Below are positions 39,420-60,490 of a stretch of 64,000 nt of DNA, in pieces (positions within the stretch are counted from its first letter, which is position 1; each line of letters begins with the position of its first letter). A model generated the notes under the pieces. The model did no database searches. It saw only the letters and a list, made by a program, of their open reading frames with translations, and was not told the DNA's origin. The DNA lies in assembly GCF_030013205.1 (NCBI RefSeq), contig NZ_CP122648.1; one strand, given 5' to 3'. The DNA is from Escherichia coli. GTDB lineage: Bacteria > Pseudomonadota > Gammaproteobacteria > Enterobacterales > Enterobacteriaceae. The position numbers and the translations under genes were made by a program.

Positions 39420-39439
39420 AAAGCGCCCGCAGGCGCTTT
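39420..39439. repeat. attL: 20-bp direct repeat AAAGCGCCCGCAGGCGCTTT (prophage boundary)
   Basis: Identical copy at 60471-60490; palindromic stem; here followed on the minus strand by a T-run, i.e. the intact host terminator context. Confidence 0.8.
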
Positions 39440-39522: not shown

Positions 39523-40515
39523 CTAATCGATGGACAGTTTATGGACACTTTCAGCCAGCGGATTAAAGTTGATCGCGTCCTGTAAGAAGTCCGGCGAAAA
39601 ATGAGCGTACGTCATTGTTTGCTGAATCGTTGCGTGCCCCAGGATTCGTTGCAACGTAACAATATTTCCGCCATTCATCATAAAGTGTGTGGCAAATGTA
39701 TGACGCATGACATGCGTAGCCTGCCCCTTCGGCAAATCCGGTTTCACCTCCTGAAGAATCTCCCGGAACTTCAGATAATCAACCTGATACAATAACCCCG
39801 TTCGACGGGTTTTAATCAGAGGCACGACCGAATCCGCCACAGGAACCGAACGGGATTTTCCGTTTTTGGTGTTAAAGAACGTCACCCGGTTGCCAACGAT
39901 ATGCTCTCCACGTAGTTCCGATGCTTCACTCCATCGGGCACCAGTAGAAAGACACAGAATGGCAACACGACGCGCATCACCCTCCAGTCGCTCAAGAAGC
40001 CGTTCAATCTCATCATCAGAAAGAAAGGCCATCTCTGTGTTCTGAACTTTCAGTTTTCGTATACCGCGTACAGGGTTCGCGTTGTGAAAGACCTCAGCTT
40101 CAATCAGCACCGTGAACATGGTAGACAGTACGCATAAGTCACGATTAATACTGGACGGCATTAATCCGGCCTGTAATTTCTCTGACCGATATTCAAGCAT
40201 AAATTTTCGCGTCATCTGACTGGCGCGAGGATCTCCCATTTCACGAACAACCTTCCCTAGCCTAACCCTGTAGCTATCCCCGTAAGCCTGATTACGCCCA
40301 TCAAGCATCCACCACGCATCAAGCAGCTCTGATAATCGCCGCTGATCAGCTGGCTTAGCCTGCCATGGCTTGTCATGAAAGTTCTGTAACACATACTTCT
40401 CAAACTCCTGAGCCTTTGATTTCAGGGCAAAGATTTTTCGAATCCGCTTTCCTTCCGCCCCCTGCGGTCTGACATCGACCTGATAACGTCCGTCTTTGAG
40501 TTGCTTAATCGACAT
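39523..40515 (-). CDS. int: Phage integrase (tyrosine recombinase, P2 Int-like)
   Basis: N-terminus MSIKQLKDGRYQVDVRPQG resembles P2 Int; C-terminal catalytic region with HxxR...Y; adjacent to attL. Confidence 0.88.
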   Translation of the reverse strand: MSIKQLKDGRYQVDVRPQGAEGKRIRKIFALKSKAQEFEKYVLQNFHDKPWQAKPADQRRLSELLDAWWMLDGRNQAYGDSYRVRLGKVVREMGDPRASQMTRKFMLEYRSEKLQAGLMPSSINRDLCVLSTMFTVLIEAEVFHNANPVRGIRKLKVQNTEMAFLSDDEIERLLERLEGDARRVAILCLSTGARWSEASELRGEHIVGNRVTFFNTKNGKSRSVPVADSVVPLIKTRRTGLLYQVDYLKFREILQEVKPDLPKGQATHVMRHTFATHFMMNGGNIVTLQRILGHATIQQTMTYAHFSPDFLQDAINFNPLAESVHKLSID

Positions 40516-40584: not shown

Positions 40585-40926
40585 TCAGCCAACATTGCGG
40601 CCTGATCGGGGTGATTTTTGGGTAATACCGATTGAAACCTGATCGCCCTCCGACTGAATAGATCCATCAAGAGAGAGAGCCGGAGCAATCTGCCCGGCGA
40701 CAGGTAGCGTCTTATCTTTTATTAGCCACAGCATGTATTTTTCAAAGCGATCGACTTGCAGAACCGCCTCAACGATTTTTGCTCTAGCGTTCTTTTGCCC
40801 CGATTCGTAATTCCTTATGGTTGCCAAAGACAACCCAGTAATATCCGCAAACTGCTTTTGTGTTAACCCTTCCGCCTTACGTATCTGACGTAACTTTTTT
40901 GCATAGTCTATTGACAAGATAACCAT
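40585..40926 (-). CDS. Prophage repressor (P2 C-like, HTH)
   Basis: HTH LTQKQFADITGLSLATIRNYESG and C-terminal GQIAPAL motif resembling P2 C; start uncertain (ORF extends to 40980). Confidence 0.75.
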   Translation of the reverse strand: MVILSIDYAKKLRQIRKAEGLTQKQFADITGLSLATIRNYESGQKNARAKIVEAVLQVDRFEKYMLWLIKDKTLPVAGQIAPALSLDGSIQSEGDQVSIGITQKSPRSGRNVG

Positions 40927-40971
40927 TTGAGTATTAACCTCTCGCACAAAGATAACCGTTTGATTATCTTT

Positions 40972-40989
40972 ACAAACCAAAACAAACCA
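40972..40989. promoter_or_regulatory. Candidate operator: two 8-bp direct repeats ACAAACCA spaced 10 bp centre to centre
   Basis: Lies between the divergent repressor and early operon; P2 C binds direct repeats. Confidence 0.35.
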
Positions 40990-41030
40990 TCACAAGGCGC
41001 GACAAGCGCACCAACGCAAGAGGATAACAA

Positions 41031-41552
41031 ATGCGGGACTTCATTGCCGATAAAGAGTTATCTGACCACCAACCACTTCAGGAAAGTGACGCACTCAGCG
41101 GATCCATTGATGCCGCCAACGACGACGAACACGAAGAAAACAAGAAAAAGCGTTCCTACAAAAAAGGAGCGACTTTACGGCTGGATGGTCCGATCGCCGG
41201 GCTTTGCTCTCTGGAAAAAGGCGCGGCATATATTGGGCTAACAAAATCTGCACTGCGCGTAGCCATTCATCGCGGTCAAATGCCGGGACACAAGACGCGC
41301 ACAAACCCGGAAGATGAAAACTCAGACGGAGTATGGTGGTTTAACGCCAAAGAGTGGGACGCACTGGCTGACGAGCTACCGGAACTTGAGCCACCAGAAT
41401 GGCACAACTGGAAAAGTTACTGGACGTATGACCGCCAGAAAAGAAAGTTCTTTCCAGCTAATAAAGAAGACTGCCAGACCATTAACGGTAAGCGAGTTTA
41501 TACAGGCAGAAGCTCAAAACTGAACCAACTCAGAAACAACAGAGGCAACTAA
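41031..41552 (+). CDS. Early protein with excisionase/AlpA-like HTH (possible Cox analogue), 173 aa
   Basis: First gene of the rightward early operon with a good RBS; segment YIGLTKSALRVAIHRGQMPG resembles Xis/AlpA HTH. Confidence 0.5.
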   Translation: MRDFIADKELSDHQPLQESDALSGSIDAANDDEHEENKKKRSYKKGATLRLDGPIAGLCSLEKGAAYIGLTKSALRVAIHRGQMPGHKTRTNPEDENSDGVWWFNAKEWDALADELPELEPPEWHNWKSYWTYDRQKRKFFPANKEDCQTINGKRVYTGRSSKLNQLRNNRGN

Positions 41553-41556
41553 TCGT

Positions 41557-41979
41557 ATGAAAACAAACACGTCAGATTTCACAATAACTATTTCAAAAAA
41601 TGACCAAGCATTAATTGATAACCTGAAATACCTTGCGGAAAAACATAATAACGGACGAATTGCAATTAATTTACGACACATCACAGGAGTAACAATTGTA
41701 ACCAGTTACTGGCATCTATATCTAATCGCTAAATCAGTACTGGAAAACAAAGATTCTGTTGTCAATGGAAGAGATGTAGATACTCTTCCTGCACAAATCA
41801 AACCGATAGCCTATCAATTGCGTAATCGTTTTAAAAATGAAGGTGGGATTATATTTGACTTTCCCGCAGCTGTAGCCGTGAGCTTCTCTCGGGAGGATAT
41901 ACTTCACTCATTTCGTTTTGCTCTATCAGGTGACGAGACATTATGGCAGCTAGAAGATGCCGGGAGCAGCCCGGCATAA
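41557..41979 (+). CDS. Hypothetical protein, 140 aa, AT-rich cargo
   Basis: ORF starts 5 bp after the preceding gene; markedly AT-rich; no recognisable domain. Confidence 0.5.
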   Translation: MKTNTSDFTITISKNDQALIDNLKYLAEKHNNGRIAINLRHITGVTIVTSYWHLYLIAKSVLENKDSVVNGRDVDTLPAQIKPIAYQLRNRFKNEGGIIFDFPAAVAVSFSREDILHSFRFALSGDETLWQLEDAGSSPA

Positions 41980-41985
41980 ATCAAA

Positions 41986-42177
41986 TTAAAAATCAACCAG
42001 TTGTGTGACAGGTGGGTATTTACGCTGAATTTTGTCAGTTACTAACGCCAGTAATATATGAATCTCTGCGTTTAATGCGTCTTTATCACCCGTCGTTTTT
42101 ACCCTAGGAGGGTTAATGTTATCCAGAGCAGCACTAAGGTCACTCAACAAATTAACAACTTTTTTATCTTCTGACAT
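41986..42177 (-). CDS. Hypothetical small protein, 63 aa, convergent to the 140-aa ORF
   Basis: AT-rich ORF on the opposite strand inside the early region. Confidence 0.35.
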   Translation of the reverse strand: MSEDKKVVNLLSDLSAALDNINPPRVKTTGDKDALNAEIHILLALVTDKIQRKYPPVTQLVDF

Positions 42178-42312
42178 GAAAACCTCTAAACAATTTAATT
42201 AAACATAAGCCAGGACCTGAACCGGCCAGTCCAAGTCCTAGACACACAAAAAATACCACAAATCAATACAAGGTGACACGAGTACACCTTACCGAAGGTA
42301 CAGAGTTTTAAT

Positions 42313-42663
42313 ATGAAACTACAGCGCAATTCTTCACAGCCGCGCTTCCGCAACGGTGCGGAACGCCACGCTAACCGTTTCGCTACCAGTGCATCACGTA
42401 GCAACTCTCGCTACAGCCTGAGCGAAACACACGCAACGCCGGATGGCTACCCAGTAAAACAAATCGGCGAGCATACCTGGCTGATTGAGAAAGCTGGAAT
42501 TGTGGTCCACAAATGCCCACGCAATCCGTTTACCGGAAACCGCATTTTTGCATTGAGCTGCGGCGACAATCAGTTCGGGCAGGATTTCACATTATACGAA
42601 GCACTTCGCACGGTTGATCGTCTGCTTCGCGGGCAAAGTTTTATTAAACAGGCTGATTTATAA
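42313..42663 (+). CDS. Hypothetical phage early protein, 116 aa
   Basis: ORF in the early operon; start uncertain. Confidence 0.4.
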   Translation: MKLQRNSSQPRFRNGAERHANRFATSASRSNSRYSLSETHATPDGYPVKQIGEHTWLIEKAGIVVHKCPRNPFTGNRIFALSCGDNQFGQDFTLYEALRTVDRLLRGQSFIKQADL

Positions 42664-42673
42664 CAGGTGCGTT

Positions 42674-42961
42674 ATGACCAAAGAGCATGCACAAGGTGTA
42701 TTTATCCGTTTTATTGATTTTCGCGGTGAAATGTTATTACGCGCATCCGCTATTGATGGAGTGGCTCCAGCGGGTAAAAACGGAGCCAACGAAGCCACTT
42801 ACGTTTATCTGAACAGCACGCGACTGCTTGTGGAACTTCCGTACCAGACCGTACGAGAAATCATTAGTGAAGCTGAAAAGGCACGCCAGGCTAATGGCGA
42901 TAAACCCTATATCGAAATTATTTGTATGGATTCAGAAACTGAAATTCAGAAAGCAGATTAA
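42674..42961 (+). CDS. Hypothetical phage early protein, ~95 aa
   Basis: Start taken at MTKEHAQG; tight spacing with neighbours. Confidence 0.45.
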   Translation: MTKEHAQGVFIRFIDFRGEMLLRASAIDGVAPAGKNGANEATYVYLNSTRLLVELPYQTVREIISEAEKARQANGDKPYIEIICMDSETEIQKAD

Positions 42962-42972
42962 AGGGCGTTGCG

Positions 42973-43215
42973 ATGGGCAAAGAATATAAAACTCTCATTA
43001 ACAAAGCACTTGAGCGTTTTTATTTTCGCTTAAGTGCATCAGGCGCTCATGCTGAACGTGCAGCCCGTGACTCATTGACCAGGGCAATCCGGAGTCTGTA
43101 TGACGTGGCTTTTTACGCTGATGATCTGGATGCACTTAACGAACTTTCCGAGCTGATCTGTGCCGCAGAATGCGGGGAACATATTGAACCGTATAAGCTG
43201 GGGAATATCGCATGA
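42973..43215 (+). CDS. Hypothetical phage early protein, 80 aa
   Basis: ORF ending in an ATGA overlap with the following small ORF. Confidence 0.45.
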   Translation: MGKEYKTLINKALERFYFRLSASGAHAERAARDSLTRAIRSLYDVAFYADDLDALNELSELICAAECGEHIEPYKLGNIA

Positions 43216-43325
43216 GTATATTTATCTCGTGGCTTGTTCTGATTATTTCGGTGATCTGCGCTATTGGCATTATGCGAATTATTCATTCAGTGAAAAAGAT
43301 TGAGCGTTTTTTCTCTGACGAATAA
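43212..43325 (+). CDS. Small hydrophobic peptide, 37 aa (MSIFISWLVLIISVICAIGIMRIIHSVKKIERFFSDE)
   Basis: ATG overlaps the upstream stop (ATGA); single TM helix; below the ORF-track length cutoff. Confidence 0.35.
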   Translation: MSIFISWLVLIISVICAIGIMRIIHSVKKIERFFSDE

Positions 43326-43418
43326 CAGCACAAATAAAACACCAGATTAAATAAGAAAACGTGAAAACCATCCGAATTAACGGAGGCATTCACACACGTA
43401 AATAATGGAGATACAAAA

Positions 43419-43829
43419 ATGAACGCAAAAGAAAAAGGCATTATAACTGCGCTAAAAAATATATCGGAGACCGCAAACAGAGCCATTCAGGATGCAACAA
43501 ATGCAGGAATGATTGGGCCTGCCACCACAGCCATGATGATAGCAAGAGTAACCGCCGAAGCAGCCGAAATTATCGAAAAACAGGATGCTGAACTAACGGT
43601 TCTCAGAACACAATCAGTCACCGAACTGGATTTGTCTAACACCGGACGCCTTATTTACACAATTGGCTCGGAGCCACAGCAATACACCATTATCGTCGGA
43701 TTACAGGATAAATACCTGATCACTCCTCACCCCATAAGGGAATCAGAAATTCTGACAAATCTCCGCCTGATAGAGCGCTCTCAAGTCGCATTCATTGATG
43801 ACGCACAGCGCACCGTATTTAACGCATAG
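43419..43829 (+). CDS. Hypothetical phage protein, 136 aa
   Basis: ORF in the early operon. Confidence 0.45.
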   Translation: MNAKEKGIITALKNISETANRAIQDATNAGMIGPATTAMMIARVTAEAAEIIEKQDAELTVLRTQSVTELDLSNTGRLIYTIGSEPQQYTIIVGLQDKYLITPHPIRESEILTNLRLIERSQVAFIDDAQRTVFNA

Positions 43830-43853
43830 GGTTACTGGACAAAGGGGGGCGCA

Positions 43854-44057
43854 ATGGCAATTAAGCGTTTTTCCGTCATTCGTTTCACATCCAGAGGGCG
43901 TGAATACGAGGTTGACGAACGGCTGATTAAAACGCTCGACCGTCACCGTTCGCAACCTGACGCGCATCACATTTACCTCACTGACGACACTTACTTCTGC
44001 GCCACCAACGTGGTGCAGGTGAATCTTATCAGACAGGTACAGGAGTCACGCAGATGA
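43854..44057 (+). CDS. Hypothetical phage protein, 67 aa
   Basis: 4-bp overlap with the next gene. Confidence 0.45.
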   Translation: MAIKRFSVIRFTSRGREYEVDERLIKTLDRHRSQPDAHHIYLTDDTYFCATNVVQVNLIRQVQESRR

Positions 44058-44299
44058 CCATTCTGGACTACATCACAGCCAATCCGGGTTGTAGCGGTGG
44101 AGAAATCGCCGCCGCGCTGAATACCCCAACCACAGCCATTAATGCTGAGTTGCGCCGACTCTGGCGTGACGGCTTAGTCATCAGAGAAGAGCGCAAAACA
44201 GGCGGTCGGTTCTCTTACCAGGTAAACCCGATGCCGTTCGGGTGTGGCAACCCACTTACTCACATGTTTAACCAGCTACTGAAGGAAGCCAGAGCATGA
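44054..44299 (+). CDS. Small winged-helix-like DNA-binding protein, 81 aa
   Basis: Segment GCSGGEIAAALNTPTTAINAELRRLWRDGLV resembles a wHTH recognition helix; ATGA-coupled on both sides. Confidence 0.45.
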   Translation: MTILDYITANPGCSGGEIAAALNTPTTAINAELRRLWRDGLVIREERKTGGRFSYQVNPMPFGCGNPLTHMFNQLLKEARA

Positions 44300-44595
44300 G
44301 CACCATCAACCACCAGGAACTACGCGAACTGGCGACTGACCTGCAACGAATGGCAACGCATCAAAAATTACTGGCGTTTCGCGCAATGCTCTCGCCATCT
44401 GCCGTGTTGGCACTACTGGATGAGCTGGAGCACGCCAGAACCACAGCGCCAGCCATTCGCCTGACGCTCCATCATGAAATCGCTGATTTCTGTGCACCAC
44501 TGGGTTCACCTGGCGAACCGGAAACACCGGAAGCAATGCAGCGAGAGCTGCTGCAACGCATCGACAAGGTTTTTGATTTTTTCCTTAACCAGTAA
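44296..44595 (+). CDS. Hypothetical phage protein, 99 aa
   Basis: Coupled ORF. Confidence 0.45.
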   Translation: MSTINHQELRELATDLQRMATHQKLLAFRAMLSPSAVLALLDELEHARTTAPAIRLTLHHEIADFCAPLGSPGEPETPEAMQRELLQRIDKVFDFFLNQ

Positions 44596-44606
44596 GGGAT
44601 CGCAGC

Positions 44607-44810
44607 ATGAACAAAAAGACCTGGTTTCGCGCATACATGTGGGCGCTGGTATGCGTCCTCGTTTCTCTCATTCTGTATGCAGGACTCCTCCCCCGAATGA
44701 TTTCATCAGACAGCTCCTTCCTGGTATTGCTGGGCATTTTCATTGCCATGCTGTACCCGGCAGGCGTTGTTCGCCTTTTCAGTAAGTACATCAAGGAAAT
44801 CAAACAATGA
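44607..44810 (+). CDS. Small two-helix membrane protein, 67 aa (possible NfeD-like partner)
   Basis: Two hydrophobic helices; stop overlaps the start of the SPFH gene (ATGA). Confidence 0.5.
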   Translation: MNKKTWFRAYMWALVCVLVSLILYAGLLPRMISSDSSFLVLLGIFIAMLYPAGVVRLFSKYIKEIKQ

Positions 44811-45637
44811 AGAAATTCAAACTCTTTCAGATTATCCCTCTTTTTGCCGCCATCCTGCTGGTTGGTTGCGATCGTGTTGAGCCAGGTAATGTGGGCATCA
44901 AAGTCAACAAACTGGGCGACGACAAAGGCGTCGGTGAAGTGGTTGGTGTTGGCCGCTACTGGACTGGCTGGAATACCGAGGTTTACATCTTCCCGACCTT
45001 CAAACAAATGAAGACCTACGATGAGCCGTTCAGCTTCCAGATGAGTGACGGCACAACCATCGGCTATCACATCGGTGTGGCCTACAAGGTTGATCCATCC
45101 AAAGTTACTACAGTGTTTCAGACCTACCGCAAAGGCGTGGATGACATTACCGACACTGACCTGCGCCAGAAGATCGCCGATGCACTCAACCGACTGGCCA
45201 GCAAAATGACCACCGACAAATTTATCGACGGCGGGAAATCTGAACTACTGGATGCAGCTCTTAAAGACATTCAGGAGGAAATGACACCCATCGGTATTCA
45301 GGTAATGAGCCTCTCATATGTGGGTAAGCCGGAGTACCCGTCAACCGTTATCGACAGCATTAATGCCAAAGTCACGGCAAACCAGAAAACCCTGCAACGC
45401 GAACAGGAAGTCAAGCAACGTGAAGCAGAAGCCAACATGTTGCGCGCAGAAGCTGCCGGACAGGCTGATGCCATTCGCACAAAAGCCCAGGCTGAAGCCG
45501 ACGCCATTCGTTTACGCGGTGAAGCTCTGCGCCAGAATCCCGGCGTTATGGAGCTGGAAGCAATCAACAAATGGAACGGCACGCTGCCGCAATACATGAC
45601 CAGCAATACCGCTGTTCCGTTTGTTCCGGTGAAGTAA
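44807..45637 (+). CDS. SPFH/band-7 (stomatin/prohibitin-like) lipoprotein, 276 aa
   Basis: Lipobox LLVGC; SPFH-like core followed by an Ala/Glu-rich coiled coil (REAEANMLRAEAAGQADAIRTKAQAEADAIRLRGEA). Confidence 0.65.
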   Translation: MKKFKLFQIIPLFAAILLVGCDRVEPGNVGIKVNKLGDDKGVGEVVGVGRYWTGWNTEVYIFPTFKQMKTYDEPFSFQMSDGTTIGYHIGVAYKVDPSKVTTVFQTYRKGVDDITDTDLRQKIADALNRLASKMTTDKFIDGGKSELLDAALKDIQEEMTPIGIQVMSLSYVGKPEYPSTVIDSINAKVTANQKTLQREQEVKQREAEANMLRAEAAGQADAIRTKAQAEADAIRLRGEALRQNPGVMELEAINKWNGTLPQYMTSNTAVPFVPVK

Positions 45638-46004
45638 TTAAACCCGGCCAGTGAAAATCACTGGCCGGAGCAGTATCAGGATTTTTTAGTATGCCGTTCT
45701 CACAAAAAAACCGCTTGCCATGCCGCAATCAGTCAGGTTACATTTCCGCTGCACCTCATAAAACGGGTGCCGGGATTTCCACCCCGCTGACAACCAAAGC
45801 GCACAACCGCGCCAGCGGTTTTTTTGTGCGTACCGTATCGCCACGTCTTTTTCGCACACGAATTATGGTGGGGCGTATGGGGCCGACTTCGGTCGGGCCG
45901 GGTTCTTTGGTTGCCGGTTGTGGAAACCCTGTACGTCTCACCACCCCGAGTTTTCCACCTCTGGATGGTGAGTTTTCAAAACTTACAACCAAAGAGGCCA
46001 CACC

Positions 46005-46235
46005 ATGGCAAACCGCAAACAACAGCGCACATACGCTGCGCGTCGTCACATCCAGACTGAAATCAACCGCAGACTTTTCCGCGCATTCCGCGTCGCGCAA
46101 ATCATGCACATCAATATGCTGCATGAACGCAGTCACGCACTATCGAACAGCTATTCCGCCTCTGTTTTCAGCTATCTGGCGGATGATCTGCGCGAGCTTC
46201 AGCAGCTCATCCAGCAGCAAAACAAACTCCATTAA
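46005..46235 (+). CDS. Hypothetical small basic protein, 76 aa
   Basis: ORF downstream of a structured non-coding stretch. Confidence 0.35.
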   Translation: MANRKQQRTYAARRHIQTEINRRLFRAFRVAQIMHINMLHERSHALSNSYSASVFSYLADDLRELQQLIQQQNKLH

Positions 46236-46307
46236 TTCCTGTTCCGGGCCTTTCCTGCACCTTGCGGCGGGAGGCCTTCGCACATCTGTAACAAGAGGAG
46301 TGCCGCA

Positions 46308-46673
46308 ATGATTCTCGCCAACGACTTTCTTGAATACCTGCTCAACACAGAGCGTGATCTTGCCGTTCGCGTGCGTGACCGTTATGACATGTACCTGAAA
46401 TCCCTGCCTGTACCGCAGCTCGCTGACGGAAAGATTGTTATTGATGGCCGCTACATGATTGACAGCCACGAGGGAAATTACAGGCTTTACCGCATTGAAG
46501 GCGGCACCCCGTCCGTTATTGGCATTTACCAGCGCCCATCCTCTGCGATCGTCGATGTGATTGCAGACAGCATCCGCATCACACATCACTATGCCGACAC
46601 AGAAGACACCGTGCTGGAAATTCAGCGGCTGGCTACAGTCTGCCGCGACACCCTGAATGGCATGACGAAGTAA
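46308..46673 (+). CDS. Hypothetical phage protein, 121 aa
   Basis: Tightly packed with downstream ORFs. Confidence 0.45.
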   Translation: MILANDFLEYLLNTERDLAVRVRDRYDMYLKSLPVPQLADGKIVIDGRYMIDSHEGNYRLYRIEGGTPSVIGIYQRPSSAIVDVIADSIRITHHYADTEDTVLEIQRLATVCRDTLNGMTK

Positions 46674-46679
46674 ATCACT

Positions 46680-46967
46680 ATGACAGCAGAGTACATCAGG
46701 GACTGGCAACAACCGCGCCACGCAGTGGGGCGTGAAGGAACGGGGATCCCTGCTCCTGAAGCGGTGGAAGGTGTCGCAACGTCACAGGCCGACATTATCG
46801 ACCGTTTTAATGCGCTGGAAACCCGCCATCAGCAGGACAGCCAGAAAATCACTTTACTGACCACAGAGCTGACAGCACTGAAGGAAAAACTGCGCACGCA
46901 GGACGGCGATCCGCAGAACCGGTTCACCGCAACGGGCGCAGCCTCCGATCAACTGGCTGACTTCTGA
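46680..46967 (+). CDS. Hypothetical phage protein, 95 aa
   Basis: Tightly packed ORF. Confidence 0.45.
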   Translation: MTAEYIRDWQQPRHAVGREGTGIPAPEAVEGVATSQADIIDRFNALETRHQQDSQKITLLTTELTALKEKLRTQDGDPQNRFTATGAASDQLADF

Positions 46968-46990
46968 TAAGACAAAGGAGCAAATTTTTT

Positions 46991-47254
46991 ATGAATCTGG
47001 TGATGTCAGATATTACCCGCAACAAGCTGGGTTGCTATATGGCGCAGCAGGCGTCGCTTAACAACATCCCGGTATCTGCACTGGTATCGCGATTTACCGT
47101 GGAACCCTCGGTGTCCGCCATTGCTGCCGCACTGCATGTGCACGGTGTGCAACGCGTGGAAATAATCGAACCCACACAGAATATGGCCATCAGCGACATA
47201 CAGGCGGCGCGCTGTGAGTCATTCACCATCAGCGAAGGTGGACGCAATGAGTAA
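46991..47254 (+). CDS. Short ORF (87 aa) overlapping the gpI start; possibly a 3' remnant of baseplate gene J
   Basis: 8-bp overlap with gpI as expected for a J/I junction; far shorter than P2 J (~300 aa). Confidence 0.35.
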   Translation: MNLVMSDITRNKLGCYMAQQASLNNIPVSALVSRFTVEPSVSAIAAALHVHGVQRVEIIEPTQNMAISDIQAARCESFTISEGGRNE

Positions 47255-47774
47255 TTCGCTGTTACCACCATCAGCCAGCAATTTCATGCGTTGTGCCGAA
47301 GCCGTCGGGACACGCATTACAGACATTCCGGTAGACCTCAACACGCTGTGGTCGCCGGATACCTGCCCGGTGCATCTGCTGCCTTATCTCGCCTGGGCAT
47401 TTTCCGTTGACCGCTGGGATCGCAACTGGCCGGAAGAGACAAAGCGACAGGTGATTCGTGATGCATGGCTGATACACCGACACAAGGGAACCATCAGCGC
47501 ACTGCGCCGGGCCATTGAGCCGCTGGGATATCTCATTCGTGTGTCTGAGTGGTGGGAGTTCGACGGCGAACCCGGAACATTCAAGGTTGATGTTGGCACG
47601 CTGGACAGTGGTGTGACCGAGGAAATGTATCTGGAAATGGAACGGCTGATTGCCGATGCCAAACCCGCAAGTCGCCACCTTATCGGCCTGAACATTATCC
47701 AGGACATTCCTGGCTATCTGTATACAGGCGGTGTGGTCTGTGATGGTGATGTTATTACTGTTTATCCCGGATAA
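47247..47774 (+). CDS. Baseplate/tail protein I (P2 gpI family), 175 aa
   Basis: MSNSLLPP...LWSPDTCPVHLLPYLAWAFSVDRWD...ERLIADAKPASRHLIGLNI matches recalled P2 gpI. Confidence 0.85.
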   Translation: MSNSLLPPSASNFMRCAEAVGTRITDIPVDLNTLWSPDTCPVHLLPYLAWAFSVDRWDRNWPEETKRQVIRDAWLIHRHKGTISALRRAIEPLGYLIRVSEWWEFDGEPGTFKVDVGTLDSGVTEEMYLEMERLIADAKPASRHLIGLNIIQDIPGYLYTGGVVCDGDVITVYPG

Positions 47775-47784
47775 GTGAGAAACA

Positions 47785-50442
47785 ATGAGCACGAAATTTA
47801 AAACCGTTATCACTACTGCCGGAGCCGCGAAGCTGGCAGCCGCCACTGTCCCCGGCGGGAAAAAAGTAACTCTGTCTGCAATGGCCGTGGGTGACGGTAA
47901 TGGCAAATTGCCGGTGCCGGATGCCGGTCAGACGAAACTGGTGCATGAGGTCTGGCGTCACGCTCTGAATAAAGTCAGCGTGGATAACAAGAATAAAAAC
48001 TATATCGTGGCTGAACTGGTTGTACCGCCAGAAGTGGGCGGCTTCTGGATGCGTGAGCTGGGTCTGTATGACGATGCCGGAACACTGATTGCGGTCGCTA
48101 ACATGGCGGAAAGCTATAAACCTGAACTCGCTGAAGGCTCCGGGCGCGCGCAGACCTGCCGCATGGTTATTATTGTCAGCAACGTGGCGTCCGTTGAGCT
48201 GAGTATTGATGCCAGCACAGTGATGGCGACGCAGGATTACGTCGATGACAAAATCGCAGAGCATGAGCAGTCCCGCCGCCATCCTGACGCCACGCTGACA
48301 GAAAAAGGTTTTACTCAGTTAAGTAGCGCAACAAACAGCACCAGTGAAGAGCTGGCGGCAACGCCAAAGGCAGTAAAAGCAGCCTATGACAATGCTGAAA
48401 AACGTATGCAGAAAGACCAGAACGGTGACGATATTCCAGATAAGGGCGCTTTTCTGGACAACGTTGGCGTTACCAGCCTGACGTTTATGAAAAACAATGG
48501 CGAAATGCCGCTTGATGCTGACTTGAATACATTTGGTCCCGTTAAGGCTTATCTTGGCATCTGGTCTAAAGCAACATCCACCAACGCAACACTGGAGAAA
48601 AATTTCCCGGAAGATAATGCTGTCGGTGTGCTTGAGGTTTTTGCAGCTGGCAATTTTGCAGGCACGCAACGTTTTATCACGAGAGACGGCAATGTATACA
48701 TGCGTAAACTCGCCAATAAGTGGAATGGCACTGATGGTCCGTGGGGCGTATGGCGTCACACTCAATCAGCTACCCGCCCTTTGAGTACGACTATAGACCT
48801 GAATACGCTTGGAGCCGCTGAGCATCTTGGTTTATGGCGTAACAGTAGCTCGGCTATAGCTTCATATGAACGCAATTATCCAGAGGAAGGCGGCTTTGCT
48901 CAGGGGACGCTTGAGATCCTCGAAGGCGGGAATTATGGAAGAACGCAACGTTATACCACTCGTCGTGGGAATATGTACGTTCGCTGCCTTGCGGCAAGCT
49001 GGGATGCATCAAATCCGCAGTGGGAACCGTGGTTAAGAGTCGGTCATCAGTCAGAGAGCCGTTATTACGAAGGTGATTTGAATGTTCTAACCGACCCCGG
49101 TATTTACAGTGTTACAGGAAAGGCGACAAACGGTCCGATGCTGGACGCTGCTGGGGCGACATTGCTTGGGATACTGGAAGTAATCAGGCGTTTTGATGGT
49201 GTATCTGTCTGGCAGCGTTACACAACCACAGGGAAATCAGAAACCACACAGGGGCGCACTTTTGAGCGCGTCTACGCCGGGAGCACATGGACCGAATGGC
49301 GAGAAGTGTATAACTCCTTTTCGTTGCCCCTGAATATGGGGATCGGTGGCGCAGTGGCAAAACTCACCAGCCTGGACTGGCAGACCTACGATTTTGTGCC
49401 GGGCAGTCTGATAACCGTTCGGCTTGATAACATGACCAATATTCCCGACGGTATGGACTGGGGCGTCATTGATGGCAACCTGATAAACATCGCTGTTGGT
49501 CCGAGTGATGATTCCGGTACGGGGCGCTCAATGCATGTATGGCGCAGCACTGTAAGTAAAGCGAATTACCGCTTTTTTATGGTTCGCATTTCAGGAAATC
49601 CGGGAAGCCGCACGATTACGACAAGACGTGTGCCAATTATCGACGAAGCTCAGACATGGGCGGCGAAACAGACATTCAGCGGTGGTCTTTCTGGCGAACT
49701 ATCCGGCAATGCTGCTACAGCAACAAAGCTGAAAACGGCAAGGACAATTAACGGCGTAAAATTTGACGGCTCGGCAAATATTGAAGCGTTTCCGCCAGGT
49801 GTTCCGCTGCCGTGGCCATCAGATACTGTGCCGTCTGGTTACGCCCTGATGCAGGGACAGACTTTTGATAAATCTGCATACCCGAAACTTGCAGTCGCTT
49901 ATCCGTCAGGCGTGATCCCGGATATGCGTGGCTGGACAATCAAGGGCAAACCCGCCAGTGGTCGGGCCGTATTGTCTCTGGAACAGGACGGCATTAAATC
50001 GCACACCCACAGTGCCAGCGCATCCAGTACGGATTTGGGTACGAAAACCACATCGTCGTTTGATTACGGTACTAAATCAACGAATAACACAGGTGCACAT
50101 ACCCACAATGTATCTGGTACTGCAAATAGTGCTGGCGCACATACTCATACCGTTCCATTAAGGAGACCAAACAGTGGCGGTATGAATTTCGACTGGCTGG
50201 ATGGTGCATCAAGTGGCACGGTGGTGGGGAATGGAACTGTGCCTTCTTCTGGCGCACATACCCACTCAGTATCAGGTACCGCTACAAGTGCTGGGGCACA
50301 TGCACACACTGTTGGTATTGGCGCTCATACGCACTCTGTTGCGATTGGTTCACATGGACACACCATCACCGTTAACGCTGCTGGTAACGCGGAAAACACC
50401 GTTAAAAACATCGCATTTAATTATATTGTGAGGCTTGCATAA
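47785..50442 (+). CDS. Tail fiber protein (P2 gpH-like), 885 aa
   Basis: Conserved N-terminal fiber domain ([20 protein letters not shown]...), internal repeats, C-terminal HxH repeats (GAHTHxVSGTAxSAGAH) ending [11 protein letters not shown]. Confidence 0.9.
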
Positions 50443-51059
50443 TGGCATTCAGAATGAGTGAACAATCACGTACTGTAAAAATTTATAACCTGCTGGCCGG
50501 AACTAATGAGTTTATTGGTGAAGGTGACGCATATATTCCACCTCATACAGGGCTGCCAGCCAATTCTACAGATATCGCCCCACCGGAAATTCCTGCTGGC
50601 TTTGTGGCAGTTTTTAACAGTGAAAATGAATCGTGGAATATTGTTGAAGACCATCGTGGTAAAACGGTCTATGACGTGGCATCGGGGGACGCGTTGTTTA
50701 TTTCTGAACCCGGACCGCTACCAGAGAATGTCACCTGGTTGTCGCCAGCAGGGGAGTATCAGAAGTGGGACGGCGTATCCTGGGTGAAGGATGAGGAAGC
50801 AGAAAAACTGTTTCGGATACGGGAAGCGGAAGAGAAAAAGGCAAGGTTGATCCAGGAAGCAACAGATAACATCGCAATTCTGCAGGATGCAGTTAATCTT
50901 GAAATAGCAACAAACGAGGAAAATTCACAACTGGATTCCTGGAGAAAATACAGAGTATTAGTGAGTAGAATTGACACCAGTACAGCTCCGGATATCGTAT
51001 GGCCAGAGCTGATGAATCAGGGTTATGTGCGGGAGGACGAGCAGATAACTTCAGACTGA
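50442..51059 (+). CDS. Tail fiber assembly chaperone (P2 gpG/Tfa-like), 205 aa
   Basis: TAATG-coupled to the fiber gene; Tfa-like sequence. Confidence 0.8.
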
Positions 51060-51586
51060 AATTTAGTGATGAATGTTGAATCATCTGGAATATCATGCAA
51101 TACCAATGCATGAGCACCTATTGTGACATTGTTTCCTATACGCACTTTGCCACCAAGAATGGTGGCATTACAACCAATGGTCACATTATGTCCTATAACA
51201 ATATCCATATCATTAAAATCACCACGCAGCCCAATAGTTACCCCTGGTTTTATTGAACAATTTTCACCGATTGTTACTTTGTGACCGATAACAACACTGT
51301 TGAGATAAGAAATATCAAAGCCTTTCCCTATATTTACAGTTAAAGGGACTGTTACATTATATTTATCAAGAATGAAACGTTCTATTTTCCCCGCAATCTT
51401 CCGACAGCATCCGCCTTTATCAAAAAGGTATTTGGCTATGCGCCACCAAAATAAATAACGAACTCTTCTATGTTTTATTGCGCGAACAATTGCCTTTCGC
51501 CAGGAGAAAGGACGCTCGCTACCGATTACTTCATAGTGAATACAATCTTTAAGTTCATTAATATTCATATCTCTATTATTCAGCAT
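51023..51586 (-). CDS. Hexapeptide-repeat O-acetyltransferase (WcaB/CysE-like), 187 aa
   Basis: Left-handed beta-helix repeats ([45 protein letters not shown]); AT-rich; 37-bp convergent overlap with the fiber assembly gene. Confidence 0.75.
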
Positions 51587-51756: not shown

Positions 51757-52251
51757 TCAGAACAGCCCTTTAACTGAACTGGCCGCGCTGTTAAGGGATG
51801 ATGTCACTTTATCTTTGAAGCCGGACAGCATATCGCTGAACGATGAGGATTGCAGGCGCTCCCGCAAATCCTCATCACAGCGTTCAAGGGTCAGTGAAAA
51901 TTCTATCTTTTTCGCCTTACCGTAGCGATCAAACTCGGAACGGGTCGTATTCGTTTCGGTCAGGACATACATGCCGTAAATCTGCCCGACGCCATCAATA
52001 AGAGGCCAGGGGCGTCCTGTATACGCCTGCGTGGTCAGCAGCGACAGCGACACTTCGCCACCTGTAATTTCAGGATAAAGCACACCAGAAAGAACGATGC
52101 GATCATCACCTGCACCGATATACTGCCAGCTTGCTGAACGGTTAACGCGTTCATTTTTCACATGCCGCCAGCTTTTGTTTTGCTGTAACTGCTGATGCGG
52201 CAGCGTGCGCAGCTCAAAAACAAACATGCCGTAGATCATCATCATGGCCAT
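51757..52251 (-). CDS. Tail protein U (P2 gpU-like)
   Basis: MMMIYGMFVFELRTLPHQQLQQNKSWRH...VLSGVLYPEITGG...PLIDGVGQIYGMYV matches recalled P2 gpU. Confidence 0.88.
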   Translation of the reverse strand: MAMMMIYGMFVFELRTLPHQQLQQNKSWRHVKNERVNRSASWQYIGAGDDRIVLSGVLYPEITGGEVSLSLLTTQAYTGRPWPLIDGVGQIYGMYVLTETNTTRSEFDRYGKAKKIEFSLTLERCDEDLRERLQSSSFSDMLSGFKDKVTSSLNSAASSVKGLF

Positions 52252-52257
52252 GACTCC

Positions 52258-55074
52258 TCAATCTTTATCGTAAAAACTGCCACGCCCGGCACGGGCGCGC
52301 CGTTCCATTTCTGCCCTGACCATTTCACCGACCAGTTTCGCCAGTTCGCGGGGATTCTGCGTAACAACGTTATGCAGATGAACATGAATTTCACCACCAA
52401 ATCCGGAGGCAACAGGCTCCCGGTTACGGGAAGTTACAGGAACTGATGCCACTGGAGATCGTATGGCCTCCGCCACCGGGCGGGAGCTGGCCGCAACAAC
52501 AGGGACCAGCGCCGGAGGCAGCGGAGCCGGGACCACGGGTGTGATATTAATTGCGGGGGCAGGCTTACTGACCTGCGCAATCTTCCGCTCCTGCCACTCT
52601 CCACGAACAGCAAGTGCGCGGGGCAGGTTCTTAAAGACAATATCGCCGGGGCCAATGCGTTTTTTCGTCTCATCAACCAGCTTACCTGTGTTATCAGCAA
52701 TTTTGCTGAGTCTGCGTAGCGTCCCGGTATTGCTGTCTGTGAGCGGTTTGTTGTCTTTGGGTTTATTACCTCCGGTGCCATTGCCATTTTCCACAGGCTT
52801 CGGCGGATTGATTTTCGCCAGGTCACCCTGAAGCAAGGCAACCTTGTCCTGAAGAATGGCCGCACGCTGTGCGTCTTCGATTTTCTTGCGCGCCCTTTCC
52901 GCTTCATCCGGAAGGACGCCAAGTTTTTCAAGTATCCACGCCAGCGTATCCAGTAGCATTTTTGCAGGTGTCAGAACAAGCTGTAACGCACCGCCAAGAA
53001 CGTTACCGAATATCTCGCCAGCACTGGTACATTTATCCAGCGTTTCCTTGCTGGACTCCATCGGTGACAGCAGCGATTTAAACCAGTTAAACACCTGGCT
53101 GATCCCGCTTCCGATTGTGTCAAAAACAGGACCAAACCGTTCAAAGGTTTCGCGCAACGGGGTCAGCCTTTCCATAATCCCGCTGAACACCCCGGCAAAA
53201 AATGCCCTGATGGGATCCCAGTATTTCCAGATAAGAACGGCAGCTCCGGCAAGCGCAGCCACGATAAGACCAACCGGACTGAACAACGCCCCGATGGCGC
53301 CTCCCAGTAAAGAAACGGAACCCGTCACCATTCCCCACAGCGCAGGCAACACCCTGACGACATTCATTGACCGGGTAAGAATGTCAAAACCAAGACGCAG
53401 GGTGGCCAGCTTCCCGTAAAGCACCCCAATAACCAGCGACAACGAGCCAATCGTTGCAGTCATTGCCAGCAACGCACCGCCTGCTATCAGTAGCTGGCGC
53501 GTCAGTACCGGATGGGCCTGCGCCAGCGAGGTGATTTTTTCAAGCACCCGCGTGAGCCACTGCGTGACAGAACGCAGCGGACCGTCAACCAGATCACTGA
53601 TGCGAATACGAAGACCTTCCCATGCGCTGTCGAGATTTTTCAGGTCCCCATCAAGATTATCGGCCATTACTTTTGCGACGCGATCGGCCTCTCCCCTTGC
53701 CCCCTGCAATTCTCTGGTCAGTTTTTGCAGCTCTCCTGAACCAGCCGCCGCAACAAGCGTCTGCAAACCAACGAACGCCTCTTCTCCGGCGATGTCCTTG
53801 AAGAAGGAAACCTGGTCCACCTGTCCGTATTTTTGTGTCGCCTTATAGAGATCAAGCAGCACATCCTCCATCGGGCGCATTTTGCCTCTGGCGTCAGCAA
53901 CTGACACCCCCAGCTCTTTCAGTGCATCAGCCGCAGCTTTTGGCGGTGATGCAAGGCGGGACAGACTTGCGCGCATGGCCGTACCAGCATCGCTTCCGCG
54001 AAGACCATTATTGGCAAGCATCCCGGCCATGGCCGCCGCTTCTTCAAGACTGATACCAAGTTTTGCGGCAACCGGACCGGTATACTTCATGGTTTCGCCC
54101 AGCGCGCGTAAATCAGTATTGGTCCGGGTGAATGCTGCTGTCAGCGTATCGCCAACACGGTCCATTTGATCGGCTGTCAGGTTGAACTGTGTGAGGATAT
54201 TGGAGCCTATATCAGCCGTCTCGCCGAGTTCGACGCCACCTGCCAGCGCCATATTAAGAACACCGGGCAATGCGGCCTGAATGGCCTGCGGAGTAAAACC
54301 AGCCATTGCCAGAAAGCTCTGCCCACTGGCGGCATCACTCGCAGTAAACTGTGTTTCAGAGCCAAGTTTTAACGCCTGCTCACGCAGCGCCTTAAACTGC
54401 GGGCTGTTTTTGTCGATTCGCGTCAGTGCCTGAACGCGGGACATCTCTTTGCCGAACCCGATCGCAGGCTGCAAAAAACGCCCGGCAGCATAGCCGCCCG
54501 CCGTTGCCGCACCAATTGCCAGCGCACCACCTGTTTTCAGTTTTCCCGCTGTTTCCTGCGCGCGCGAATACCGCTCACGCGCCCGTGTTACACGCGCAAG
54601 CGCCTGCCGTTCGCGTTCAAGCTGGTTGTTGTACTGTTCGGTGCGTCTGATGGCCTGCTGGATGGTGTTATCGCTGCCTGTCAGGGAAATGCCGTGGCGT
54701 TTCAGCTCTCCGCCAAGCTCCCGCATTTTCTGAATTTCCCGTGTGCGCGATTCATTCAGGCGTTCAAGCCGGGTGCTTAACTGCTGCATCAGCTTTTGTT
54801 GTTTTTCGCTGAGCACTGTACCCGTGCGTTGTAACTGATTAAGGGCGTTAAGCTGGCGTCGTGCTTTCAATATGCCAGCATCCGCTTTACTGACAGCGTC
54901 ACGGGCGCGCTCAAATGAACGCGCCTGACGCTCGAGATTTTTGATCGCCCCCTGCGTTCGCTGGATGGAGTCACCAAACTGCCCCATCAGGCGGCGGGCG
55001 TTTTCGGCAGGCCGGGTCAGCCTGTCAACGGCGCTGAAAGCGACCCGGATGTCAAGAGTCTTCATTGTCTGCAT
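52258..55074 (-). CDS. Tail tape measure protein (P2 gpT-like)
   Basis: Long coiled-coil/TM-rich protein between E' and U; start uncertain (ORF extends to 55101). Confidence 0.85.
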   Translation of the reverse strand: MQTMKTLDIRVAFSAVDRLTRPAENARRLMGQFGDSIQRTQGAIKNLERQARSFERARDAVSKADAGILKARRQLNALNQLQRTGTVLSEKQQKLMQQLSTRLERLNESRTREIQKMRELGGELKRHGISLTGSDNTIQQAIRRTEQYNNQLERERQALARVTRARERYSRAQETAGKLKTGGALAIGAATAGGYAAGRFLQPAIGFGKEMSRVQALTRIDKNSPQFKALREQALKLGSETQFTASDAASGQSFLAMAGFTPQAIQAALPGVLNMALAGGVELGETADIGSNILTQFNLTADQMDRVGDTLTAAFTRTNTDLRALGETMKYTGPVAAKLGISLEEAAAMAGMLANNGLRGSDAGTAMRASLSRLASPPKAAADALKELGVSVADARGKMRPMEDVLLDLYKATQKYGQVDQVSFFKDIAGEEAFVGLQTLVAAAGSGELQKLTRELQGARGEADRVAKVMADNLDGDLKNLDSAWEGLRIRISDLVDGPLRSVTQWLTRVLEKITSLAQAHPVLTRQLLIAGGALLAMTATIGSLSLVIGVLYGKLATLRLGFDILTRSMNVVRVLPALWGMVTGSVSLLGGAIGALFSPVGLIVAALAGAAVLIWKYWDPIRAFFAGVFSGIMERLTPLRETFERFGPVFDTIGSGISQVFNWFKSLLSPMESSKETLDKCTSAGEIFGNVLGGALQLVLTPAKMLLDTLAWILEKLGVLPDEAERARKKIEDAQRAAILQDKVALLQGDLAKINPPKPVENGNGTGGNKPKDNKPLTDSNTGTLRRLSKIADNTGKLVDETKKRIGPGDIVFKNLPRALAVRGEWQERKIAQVSKPAPAINITPVVPAPLPPALVPVVAASSRPVAEAIRSPVASVPVTSRNREPVASGFGGEIHVHLHNVVTQNPRELAKLVGEMVRAEMERRARAGRGSFYDKD

Positions 55075-55288
55075 TCCCGCTGCGAAGTGCCGCCCGCTCA
55101 CGCCAGCTAACCACTTCGCCGGGCGTCATCATGAAGATTTCGGCGGGCGACCAGTTAAAAATGGCGGCGATATCTGCCACCAGATCTTCGATGTGCTCAA
55201 AGCACACCAGGGTGATTACGCTGCCGTCTCCTGCACGCTCTTCGCGCCAGAGTCTGGCTCGCTCATAAAATTTACAGCCACAGCGCAC
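55052..55288 (-). CDS. E' frameshift extension of tail assembly chaperone (P2 E+E'-like)
   Basis: Overlapping -1 frame ORF continuing past the E stop; joined via a slippery heptamer. Confidence 0.6.
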   Translation of the reverse strand: MRCGCKFYERARLWREERAGDGSVITLVCFEHIEDLVADIAAIFNWSPAEIFMMTPGEVVSWRERAALRSGNADNEDS

Positions 55289-55590
55289 AACTGAATAAAA
55301 TCGCGTGACGACATTTTTTTAATCATCACTTCATCCAGTCGTGGCGAGGTCACGCGAGGCAACAGCGTGAACATGGTATCCGCTTTCAGATTCAGCACAT
55401 CAGACAGCGACAGACCACGCAGGGATCCAGCCTGTTCAATAGCCCCGGTGATCTCCACATACGTGATTTTTTCGCCACCACGCTCAATTGGTCGGGTCAG
55501 TTTTACGCCACGTTCGACAGCCATATCCTCACCTGCCGTCACATCATCCGCCACGGTGTTATTCCGGGTTTCAGTATCGATGTCTTTCAT
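55216..55590 (-). CDS. Tail assembly chaperone E (P2 gpE-like)
   Basis: Small acidic ORF between the tail tube and tape measure genes; start uncertain. Confidence 0.75.
   Translation of the reverse strand: MKDIDTETRNNTVADDVTAGEDMAVERGVKLTRPIERGGEKITYVEITGAIEQAGSLRGLSLSDVLNLKADTMFTLLPRVTSPRLDEVMIKKMSSRDFIQLCAVAVNFMSEPDSGAKSVQETAA
55267..55273 (-). promoter_or_regulatory. Candidate -1 programmed frameshift slippery site A_AAT_TTT (E to E')
   Basis: Heptamer of the form X_XXY_YYZ in the E frame, located where the E' frame opens. Confidence 0.45.
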
Positions 55591-55645
55591 CAGTTGTCTC
55601 CTTTTCAGTCAGAGGCGACGCACTGCGCCGCCTGCATATTACTTA

Positions 55646-56158
55646 TCAGCCAAGCCCGAGCGCGGAACGGATGCGATCGGGCACAATGTCCTTGCCGTCC
55701 TTCCGGTAAATGAAGTTCAGCAGGTCAATCTCCCACAACGGGCGATCGTTAACACTCAGCTTGTAGTAGGTGTTTTTAATGGCGTAAGTGTGTGATGTGG
55801 CTTCGCCCTGTTTGGCTTCCCCCATATCAATTTCCGTCACACGTCCGCGCATTTCGACTTCATACAGGTCGCTTTCTGCATCGGTGTAGTATTCACCCGC
55901 AAAACGCAGCAGCGTGCCGTCAATCGTGCCGCCATACTTAAGGAACAGCTCACGAACTGCGCCCCCCATGACAAAGCTCGCATCAAGCGCGGAGTCGTCC
56001 AGACCGAGATCAATACTTACCGCACCCATCATGCCACCACCCCGGTAGCTGTCGGTTTTGCGCGTCAGCTTAGGCAGAGTGACGGACGTCACCTTACCCA
56101 CTTCGTTTTCACCATCCACAAACAGCGTAAAAAAGCGAAGATGTTTTGGTACAGCCAT
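55646..56158 (-). CDS. Tail tube protein (P2 gpFII-like), 170 aa
   Basis: ...VTLPKLTRK...YRGGGM...DLGLDD... matches recalled P2 FII; TGATG-coupled to the sheath gene. Confidence 0.9.
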   Translation of the reverse strand: MAVPKHLRFFTLFVDGENEVGKVTSVTLPKLTRKTDSYRGGGMMGAVSIDLGLDDSALDASFVMGGAVRELFLKYGGTIDGTLLRFAGEYYTDAESDLYEVEMRGRVTEIDMGEAKQGEATSHTYAIKNTYYKLSVNDRPLWEIDLLNFIYRKDGKDIVPDRIRSALGLG

Positions 56159-57345: not shown

Positions 57346-57499
57346 TTCAGCCCCTTGTATCCGTAAAATGATTCGGCAACAATCATCACCCACCACGCGC
57401 GTAATCTCACCCCTGCGCCGTTCTCCCGACCCGGCGACAACAAAAAGCAGTAACCCCCTCCGCACGCACATGCGACCATGCCGCACAGGGAGGGAACAG

Positions 57500-58609: not shown

Positions 58610-58785
58610 ACAACTTAGATGCATTAGCCCTGACATTTGCTAACGCGCCTACAGCAAGAATCATAATCAATCTGACAGCCTACCCGGTGTCAAAATCAGA
58701 AGTACCTTACATTAGAATATGTTAATTTGTAGCAAACAAATTTACACACAAATAATTACTGCTGAAATAGCGCCCCATAAATGCC

Positions 58786-59469: not shown

Positions 59470-59618
59470 CGCTCTGTTACAAGCAACCCCAGTGTTAAAC
59501 TGGGGTTATTCTTGCTAAGAGACCTTTATACGGCATAAGTAAACAAAGAGAACTATCAGTTGGAGTCTGGGCAAGTTCAGCCTAAACTAGCGACAGTACC
59601 ACGTTAAGGGAGGTCGCT

Positions 59619-60470: not shown

Positions 60471-60490
60471 AAAGCGCCCGCAGGCGCTTT
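60471..60490. repeat. attR: 20-bp direct repeat AAAGCGCCCGCAGGCGCTTT
   Basis: Identical to 39420-39439; 23 bp downstream of the serS stop. Confidence 0.8.

Follow-up and report, generated by a model that had tools for sequence, protein, structure and literature searches.

Base-resolution comparison with an intact allele points to two microhomology-level deletions in a P88-like prophage of Escherichia coli ETEC4079

Phages P2 (Peduovirus P2, NC_001895) and P88 (Escherichia phage, NC_026014) are the reference points for the prophage described here. The intact form of this prophage shares with P2 the gene families A, Q, P, O, N, M, L, X, the lysis genes, R, S, V, W, and J, further shares I, H, G, FI, FII, E, T, U, D, and ogr, and follows the same late-gene logic. 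Two differences in layout set P2 apart. In P2, the genes from FI to D are co-directional with H and G, whereas the FI-to-U block is inverted in the P88 genus; and P2 carries orf30 and a separate pV promoter between S and V, which are contiguous in the intact allele of E. coli strain ETEC1701. P88 has the same gene order as our locus, with a minus-strand U-T-E'-E-FII-FI block opposite H, G, and D, and it also shares a pair of SPFH genes, a 121-residue gene upstream of gpA, and a terminal hok/gef gene.

Defective ("grounded" or cryptic) prophages that arise by deletion have been reviewed (PMC6379469). The element studied here is of the same kind, as internal deletion has stripped it of essential lytic functions but spared its integrase, immunity, and cargo genes; it differs from the usual case in being unusually clean, with an intact near-identical allele available, and very young. 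A second P88-like remnant, in strain 165 (NZ_CP020509; locus L003), carries an independent deletion from about codon 172 of N to about codon 24 of gpI, which removes M, L, X, the lysis genes, R, S, V, W, and J. Its breakpoints differ from those in ETEC4079, and it keeps Q, P, and O in the 12-kb stretch covered, which ends upstream in a partition-family gene and leaves gpA outside. Because the strain 165 deletion is independent, the segment from N to the baseplate genes, with its lysis cassette, has disappeared on more than one occasion in this phage lineage.

The window, by which we mean the whole 64,000-nucleotide stretch of E. coli DNA that was analyzed, contains core chromosome from mukB to dmsA at positions 1–39223, all of it outside the prophage. 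Positions 39400–60500, used as a 21.1-kb query, matched the chromosome of the pig E. coli strain ETEC4079 (NZ_CP122643.1, a finished circular chromosome record) with 100% identity. According to RefSeq annotation, a P2-family prophage lies here between dmsA and serS and runs from an integrase gene to hok/gef. The element measures 21,071 bp (~21.1 kb) and is delimited by two copies of a 20-bp direct repeat, at 39420 and 60471; no longer exact match is shared by the two prophage borders. The left copy (AAAGCGCCCGCAGGCGCTTT; 39420–39439), a candidate attL, sits ~85 bp beyond the 3' end of the integrase gene, and the right copy (60471–60490), a candidate attR, directly precedes serS. These copies flank the int-to-hok stretch and are candidates for the att core, nominated by a repeat search.

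Multiple comparisons support assignment of this element to the P88-like phages. First, the region from the sheath gene to D is 96–97% identical to P88 DNA, and identities of 95–98% over 1.7–1.8 kb were found to P88, P884B11, 520873, 500465-2, and PhiR44_2. Second, P2-specific Pfam families matched gpI, gpU, gpD, and gpO. Based upon these similarities, we classify the element as the defective remnant of a P88-like prophage (Xuanwuvirus, Peduoviridae, P2 family). The preliminary description, made from the letters of the window alone, had also called it defective, and comparison with the intact allele bore this out.

The left part of the element is undamaged. The integrase gene (39523–40515, minus strand) encodes WP_000023738.1, a protein identical to that of the intact ETEC1701 prophage. 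The immunity switch (40585–41552; RefSeq annotation, with matches to PHROGs transcriptional regulators phrog_147 and phrog_23196) consists of a C-type HTH repressor (40585–40926, minus strand) and a Cox-family protein (41031–41552, plus strand). It is followed on the plus strand by early-operon accessory genes (41557–46235), all common to the intact ETEC1701 allele, which include a pair of SPFH lipoproteins (44607–45637, plus strand), an Ash pseudogene, and a derepression-family protein (46005–46235, plus strand).

The right part begins with gpI (47247–47774, plus strand; Pfam Tail_P2_I, E = 7e-52), the tail-fiber gene gpH (47785–50442, plus strand), and the fiber-assembly gene gpG (50442–51059, plus strand), all three intact and encoding proteins whose accessions are shared with ETEC1701. 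At the position of P2 Z/fun lies a cargo gene for a hexapeptide-repeat acetyltransferase (51023–51568, minus strand; "serine acetyltransferase" in RefSeq; Pfam Hexapep, E = 1e-12), where P88 has an invertible fiber segment and a DNA invertase. The minus-strand tail block (51757–57342) contains U (Phage_P2_GpU, E = 6e-39), the tape measure T, E', E, the tube gene FII, and the sheath gene FI, with proteins identical to those of ETEC1701. We considered whether the U-to-sheath block is a damaging inversion, but this idea was ruled out; P88 and strain 165 share the layout, and the minus-strand block is thus native to the genus. Beyond gpD (57500–58609, plus strand) are an orphan gene of 221 codons (58804–59469, plus strand; RefSeq annotation), the late activator gene ogr (59619–59879, plus strand), and the toxin gene hok/gef (60070–60210, plus strand), the latter two also from RefSeq annotation. 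The orphan, an extra ~1-kb gene between D and ogr that P88 lacks, had no match in Pfam, PHROGs, or PADLOC.

ETEC1701, a further Belgian pig isolate and a sister strain of ETEC4079, has this prophage at the identical dmsA/serS location in an intact form of ~36 kb, with 99.7–99.98% identity, 55 annotated features, and a full set of virion, lysis, and replication genes. Because an intact prophage occupies the same site in ETEC1701, the damage in ETEC4079 could be mapped at base resolution. We aligned the ETEC4079 locus (L001, identical to the window; window position = L001 position + 37,899) with the ETEC1701 locus (L002), used as the reference intact allele. The blastn alignment consisted of exactly three collinear blocks, between which ETEC1701 has 14,887 extra bases. 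Block 1 joined positions 1–8861 of L001 to positions 1–8861 of L002 with 2 mismatches, block 2 joined L001 8859–9214 to L002 17138–17493 with 100% identity, and block 3 joined L001 9210–24101 to L002 24097–38988.

The first deletion spans 8,279 bp, from codon 27 of gpA to codon 210 of gpO, and its joint at 46758–46760 has a 3-bp microhomology, GAA. The second spans 6,608 bp, from codon 41 of gpN to codon 252 of gpJ, and its joint at 47112–47113 has a 2-bp microhomology, TG, within an imperfect 5-mer (CGGTG versus CGTTG, 47109–47113). Between the joints a 356-bp island (46758–47113, plus strand), 100% identical to L002 17138–17493, retains the 3' end of gpO, the 23-bp O-N spacer, and the 5' end of gpN. 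The A', 'O, N', and 'J fragments that remain match the corresponding ETEC1701 genes with 100% identity and are joined at non-homologous points. Alignment and annotation revealed no IS element, longer repeat, recombinase site, or recombinase gene at either joint. By our own calculation, which assumes equal base frequencies, a microhomology of at least 3 bp is expected by chance with P ~0.05 and one of at least 2 bp with P ~0.16. The observed 3 and 2 bp thus exceed chance only modestly and constrain the mechanism of deletion weakly; they are compatible with illegitimate recombination of the RecA-independent type but do not single out a mechanism.

Based upon these results, we consider it very probable that the interval from the 121-residue ORF to the start of gpI is the scar of two illegitimate, microhomology-level deletions in a P88-like prophage of ETEC4079. 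In this model, deletion 1 fused replication-endonuclease gene A at codon 27 to scaffold/protease gene O at codon 210, and deletion 2 fused capsid gene N at codon 41 to baseplate gene J at codon 252. The deletions could have occurred in either order, or both in one complex event. As it happens, each joint is in frame, giving chimeric ORFs of 95 and 87 codons. No allele with a single deletion, as expected of an intermediate, was found among 5,426 complete E. coli genomes.

The preliminary description had proposed a single junction in a truncated baseplate region, with the 87-codon ORF as a plain gpJ remnant preceded by two small genes of unknown family. Part of this reading holds, as one breakpoint interrupts gpJ shortly before gpI begins and the 87-residue protein ends with 46 residues of the gpJ C-terminus. 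One deletion nevertheless appears most unlikely, as the alignment yields three blocks and two junctions, with the O'-N' island between them; residues 1–41 of the same protein come from gpN, and the 95-residue protein is a gpA::gpO fusion.

A different concern is that the prophage is truly intact in ETEC4079 and that the assembler skipped 8.3 and 6.6 kb of it. The allele is indeed unique to one assembly, and a 761-bp query matched three places in the ETEC4079 record, so other P2-family sequence could have confused the assembler. Assembly collapse between similar prophages joins homologous positions. The positions joined here are non-homologous and share only 2–3 bp, which makes an artifact unlikely; moreover, the record is a finished circular chromosome, and strain 165 shows comparable real deletions in the same phage lineage. 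We therefore regard misassembly as very unlikely.

Translation and profile searches show the make-up of each of the three small ORFs upstream of gpI, which are present where the preliminary description had placed them. First, the 95-residue ORF (46680–46967, plus strand) encodes gpA residues 1–27, identical to ETEC1701, followed by gpO residues 210–278, with a suffix of 69 residues plus the stop codon identical to ETEC1701 gpO. Its residues 27–94 aligned with positions 200–267 of the 268-position Pfam Phage_GPO profile, and PHROGs matched it to the head-scaffolding family phrog_73 (profile positions 211–281 of 287). Second, the 87-residue ORF (46991–47254, plus strand) encodes gpN residues 1–41, again identical, followed by gpJ residues 253–298, and its suffix of 46 residues plus the stop codon is identical to ETEC1701 gpJ. 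Residues 5–43 aligned with the major head protein family phrog_70 (profile positions 1–38 of 345) and residues 40–86 with the baseplate protein family phrog_4226 (profile positions 181–227 of 228) and also with phrog_6. The ORF overlaps the gpI start (47247) by 8 nucleotides, as J overlaps I in the intact phage. Judged by these alignments, the 87-residue protein is only half a J remnant, residues 42–87, and is best described as an in-frame gpN::gpJ chimera. Third, the 121-residue ORF (46308–46673, plus strand) encodes WP_040090118.1 in both strains, matched phrog_3237 with E = 4e-54, lies directly upstream of gpA in ETEC1701 and P88, and corresponds in position and size to P88 gp15. These properties identify it as an intact, normal early gene. 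Thus, neither of the two supposedly unknown genes is one, as the first is a gpA::gpO chimera and the second is native. Finally, the four gene fragments (A, O, N, and J) were already flagged as pseudogenes by PGAP/RefSeq. When homologs of capsid and terminase genes were sought among the small ORFs, capsid and scaffold fragments did turn up, but these are deletion scars and support the deletion model.

Compared to ETEC1701 and P88, 19 genes have been lost or truncated. Deletion 1 took A (81 nucleotides left), ParM and its partner, the portal gene Q, the large-terminase gene P, and three-quarters of O. Deletion 2 took N (123 nucleotides left), M, L, X, the holin and M15 endolysin genes, two spanin-like genes (lysB-like and lysC), R, S, V, and W; it also removed 756 of the 897 nucleotides of gpJ (five-sixths), and 46 C-terminal codons survive inside the chimera. 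No portal, terminase, capsid, holin, endolysin, replication-endonuclease, V, or W gene was found in the element by RefSeq annotation or by PHROGs and Pfam searches of the small ORFs, and the remaining ORFs had no match to a head, terminase, lysis, or replication family in Pfam or PHROGs. These sources agree with the absence of such genes proposed in the preliminary description, and its suggestion that capsid, terminase, lysis, replication, and V/W/J genes were lost by deletion is confirmed by the 14,887 extra bases of ETEC1701, which hold exactly those genes.

The genes that remain include I, H, G, U, T, E', E, FII, and FI, all with ETEC1701 protein accessions, as well as D, ogr, int, cox, the repressor, and several cargo genes. 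The tail module had been described as near-complete, but 10 of 16 tail genes are left when counted against the P2 set of X, R, S, V, W, J, I, H, G, FI, FII, E, E+E', T, U, and D; the missing genes comprise the baseplate core (the spike and wedge genes V, W, and most of J), the tail-completion genes R and S, and X, and the P2 annotation (NC_001895) lists them as essential. In the absence of these genes, the element should therefore be unable to form a baseplate. This result also bears on whether the locus is a domesticated tail-only element of the R-type tailocin kind, kept for bacterial competition. Although sheath, tube, tape measure, E/E', U, D, I, H/G, and ogr are intact and head genes are absent, as such an element would have it, V, W, J, R, S, and X are deleted, only I remains among V, W, J, and I, and the holin, M15 endolysin, lysB-like, and lysC genes fell within deletion 2, leaving no lysis homolog. 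In addition, the allele is present in 1 of 5,426 genomes and is not conserved as a tail-only locus, and I, H, and G appear to be without their native upstream late-promoter region. We regard a tailocin-like function as exceedingly unlikely.

Using P2 gene functions as annotated in NC_001895, we expect that the remnant would be incapable of replication, of head and baseplate assembly, of DNA packaging, and of cell lysis. Gene A of P2 contains the ori nick site, and cos of P2 is found in a non-coding region beside the 3' end of the portal gene. By analogy, a P2-type ori inside A, the divergent late-promoter region between P and O, and the portal-adjacent cos region would all fall within deletion 1. 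Direct searches for cos and for Ogr-type sites gave negative results. Neither exact nor fuzzy searches matched the P2 cos 19-mer, blastn with the P2 cos region gave no detectable match in P88-like DNA, and strict Ogr-type dyads (TGT-N12-ACA) were absent from the relevant intergenic regions of both alleles. When the P/O and FI/D intergenic regions were aligned locally, the score exceeded that of shuffled sequences by only ~2.5 standard deviations.

It is conceivable that the element is satellite-like and relies on another P2-family phage in the same cell to supply replication, heads, and packaging, as it keeps int, cox, repressor, and ogr genes and as ETEC4079 holds other P2-family sequence. 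However, just 27 codons of gpA are left, and a search of the ORFs revealed neither a primase nor a replicase; the portal-adjacent non-coding region, which is the place of cos in P2, lies inside deletion 1, as judged by synteny only; no satellite hallmark gene was detected in Pfam, PHROGs, or PADLOC scans; and the intact parent allele marks the element as a freshly truncated phage. A satellite lifestyle is vanishingly unlikely on this evidence.

Genes I, H, and G are probably cut off from their native upstream late promoter. Together with the two chimeric ORFs, each of which still has its own original ribosome-binding site, these genes have come to follow the early (Cox-side) operon without any intervening gene. 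Simple scans of the plus strand from 45902 to 47900 detected no terminator-like site, nor did they detect a new promoter at either joint; expression of I, H, and G, if any, would therefore depend on transcripts reading through from the early operon. Other functions may persist. The remnant probably still confers immunity, and it may still excise, because Int, Cox, and both repeat copies are present. An excised circle would be expected not to replicate, making the element a dead end. The locus is thus predicted to yield no phage in ETEC4079, and tail-like particles are not expected from this locus alone.

How common and how old is this allele? The intact 15.2-kb block was present at ≥80% coverage in 1,025 of 5,426 complete E. 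coli genomes (~19%), and, as regards a second P88-like prophage that might complement the remnant in trans, ETEC4079 was absent among the 60 matches listed of these 1,025. By contrast, the allele with both junctions occurred in one of the 5,426 genomes, that of ETEC4079. The chimeric proteins were absent from a collection of ~15 billion proteins, and a 29-mer across junction 2 was absent from metagenome and viral contigs. In the left arm, ETEC4079 and ETEC1701 differ by 2 SNPs in 8,861 bp. Because the allele is private to one strain and its flanks are near-identical to those of the sister strain, the event appears to be very recent, with no sign of selection for retention. A literature search found no paper on strains ETEC4079 or ETEC1701.

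The chimeric proteins raise one further possibility. Residues 195–284 of P2 gpO form the internal scaffolding domain (PMC7552001). The 95-residue product holds most of the C-terminal scaffolding domain of gpO, and the 87-residue product holds the N-arm of gpN. If expressed, these chimeras could conceivably act as dominant-negative decoys that disturb capsid assembly by superinfecting P88- or P2-like phages, and the scar would then be an accidental anti-phage interference module. We consider such activity highly improbable. Two in-frame joints have a chance expectation of 1 in 9, and with this expectation and an allele private to one strain there is no sign of selection for a decoy role. PADLOC found no homologs of defense systems among the cargo genes and chimeras.

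We view the locus as routine, textbook prophage decay, of little import beyond correct annotation, in which the gene fragments were already pseudogenes in the public record. Its sole distinction is that both scars can be read at base resolution via the intact allele, providing a clean example of the inactivation of a common type of E. coli prophage. The intact fiber genes would remain available for recombination with incoming phages.

Two annotations change as a consequence of this work, the small ORFs being chimeric, as described above, and the start of gpD being misplaced. PGAP places this start at 57809, giving a protein of 266 residues, and the Pfam profile match covers positions 48–304 only, suggesting a truncated gene. 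Truncation was ruled out, however, as gpD aligns along the whole of P88 gp51. On the basis of this alignment, we assign the true start to 57500, making the PGAP start too late; the resulting intact protein of 369 residues is 99% identical (365/369) across the full 366 residues of P88 gp51.

Within the right arm of the ETEC4079 prophage remnant, the 14.9-kb block 3' of the second deletion that can be aligned with the intact prophage of the sister strain ETEC1701, 39 of the 40 real SNPs between the two strains were packed into 2.5 kb (window 57262-59768). This cluster spans the 5' end of the sheath gene, gene D, an orphan gene, and ogr. Over 1.4 kb of comparison, phage P88 had 38 and 29 mismatches to the two strains' alleles, with neither allele nearer identity. 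The cluster looks like a recombination patch that one of the two strains exchanged with a different phage of the P2 family.

The gpD open reading frame (57500-58609) aligned from position 57500 with all 366 amino acids of P88 gpD, an extent of alignment which argues that the RefSeq start, placed by PGAP at 57809 to give a 266-residue protein labeled 'VgrG/Pvc8 family', is probably wrong. Between gpD and ogr, the ETEC4079 element carries an insertion of ~1 kb that P88 lacks and that contains the orphan gene (221 amino acids, 58804-59469), which had no match in Pfam, PHROGs, or PADLOC. This orphan may be a cargo or defense candidate in a variable spot.

Gene content also differed between gpG and gpU, where the ETEC4079 element encodes a hexapeptide-repeat acetyltransferase on the minus strand (51023-51568; serine acetyltransferase in the PGAP annotation). 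By contrast, P88 has an invertible fiber segment and a DNA invertase at this position, and the related prophage remnant of E. coli strain 165 has a family-9 glycosyltransferase. The gpG-gpU position is a variable cargo slot, and its cargo may act in cell-surface modification.

In the early region, a Cox-family protein, which has 173 residues in the ETEC4079 element and 141 in P88, is followed by a 140-residue ORF on the plus strand and a 63-residue ORF on the minus strand (41031-42177 for all three). Neither small ORF matched PHROGs or had a P88 counterpart, and this stretch is another small early-region insertion. The early operon also contains a 67-residue membrane protein paired with a 276-residue SPFH-domain lipoprotein (44607-45637); P88 conserves this pair as gp11-gp12, and a PADLOC scan gave no match to it. 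An Ash-family pseudogene (45691-45963) is common to ETEC4079 and ETEC1701. Terminator-like hairpins on both strands numbered 8 between 45600 and 47900, compared to an expected 2.3, and nearly all fell at 45643-46083, in the region of this pseudogene.

The P88-like remnant of strain 165 (NZ_CP020509) has an independent internal deletion (positions 6234-7208 of the extracted locus), which left the first 516 nt of capsid gene N fused to a gpI that lacks its N-terminus; Q, P, and O are retained. A pseudogene-style capsid label like that in strain 165 was seen in several other clinical isolates, which may share the N-gpI deletion.

A 761-bp query spanning the two deletion junctions of the ETEC4079 element matched three places in the ETEC4079 chromosome (NZ_CP122643.1), and a 21-kb query matched seven. 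Thus, other P2-family sequence is present in this strain and might supply the missing functions in trans. Elsewhere, in the core chromosome, an IS200C-family transposase gene (20884-21342) is inserted between ycaL and aroA.
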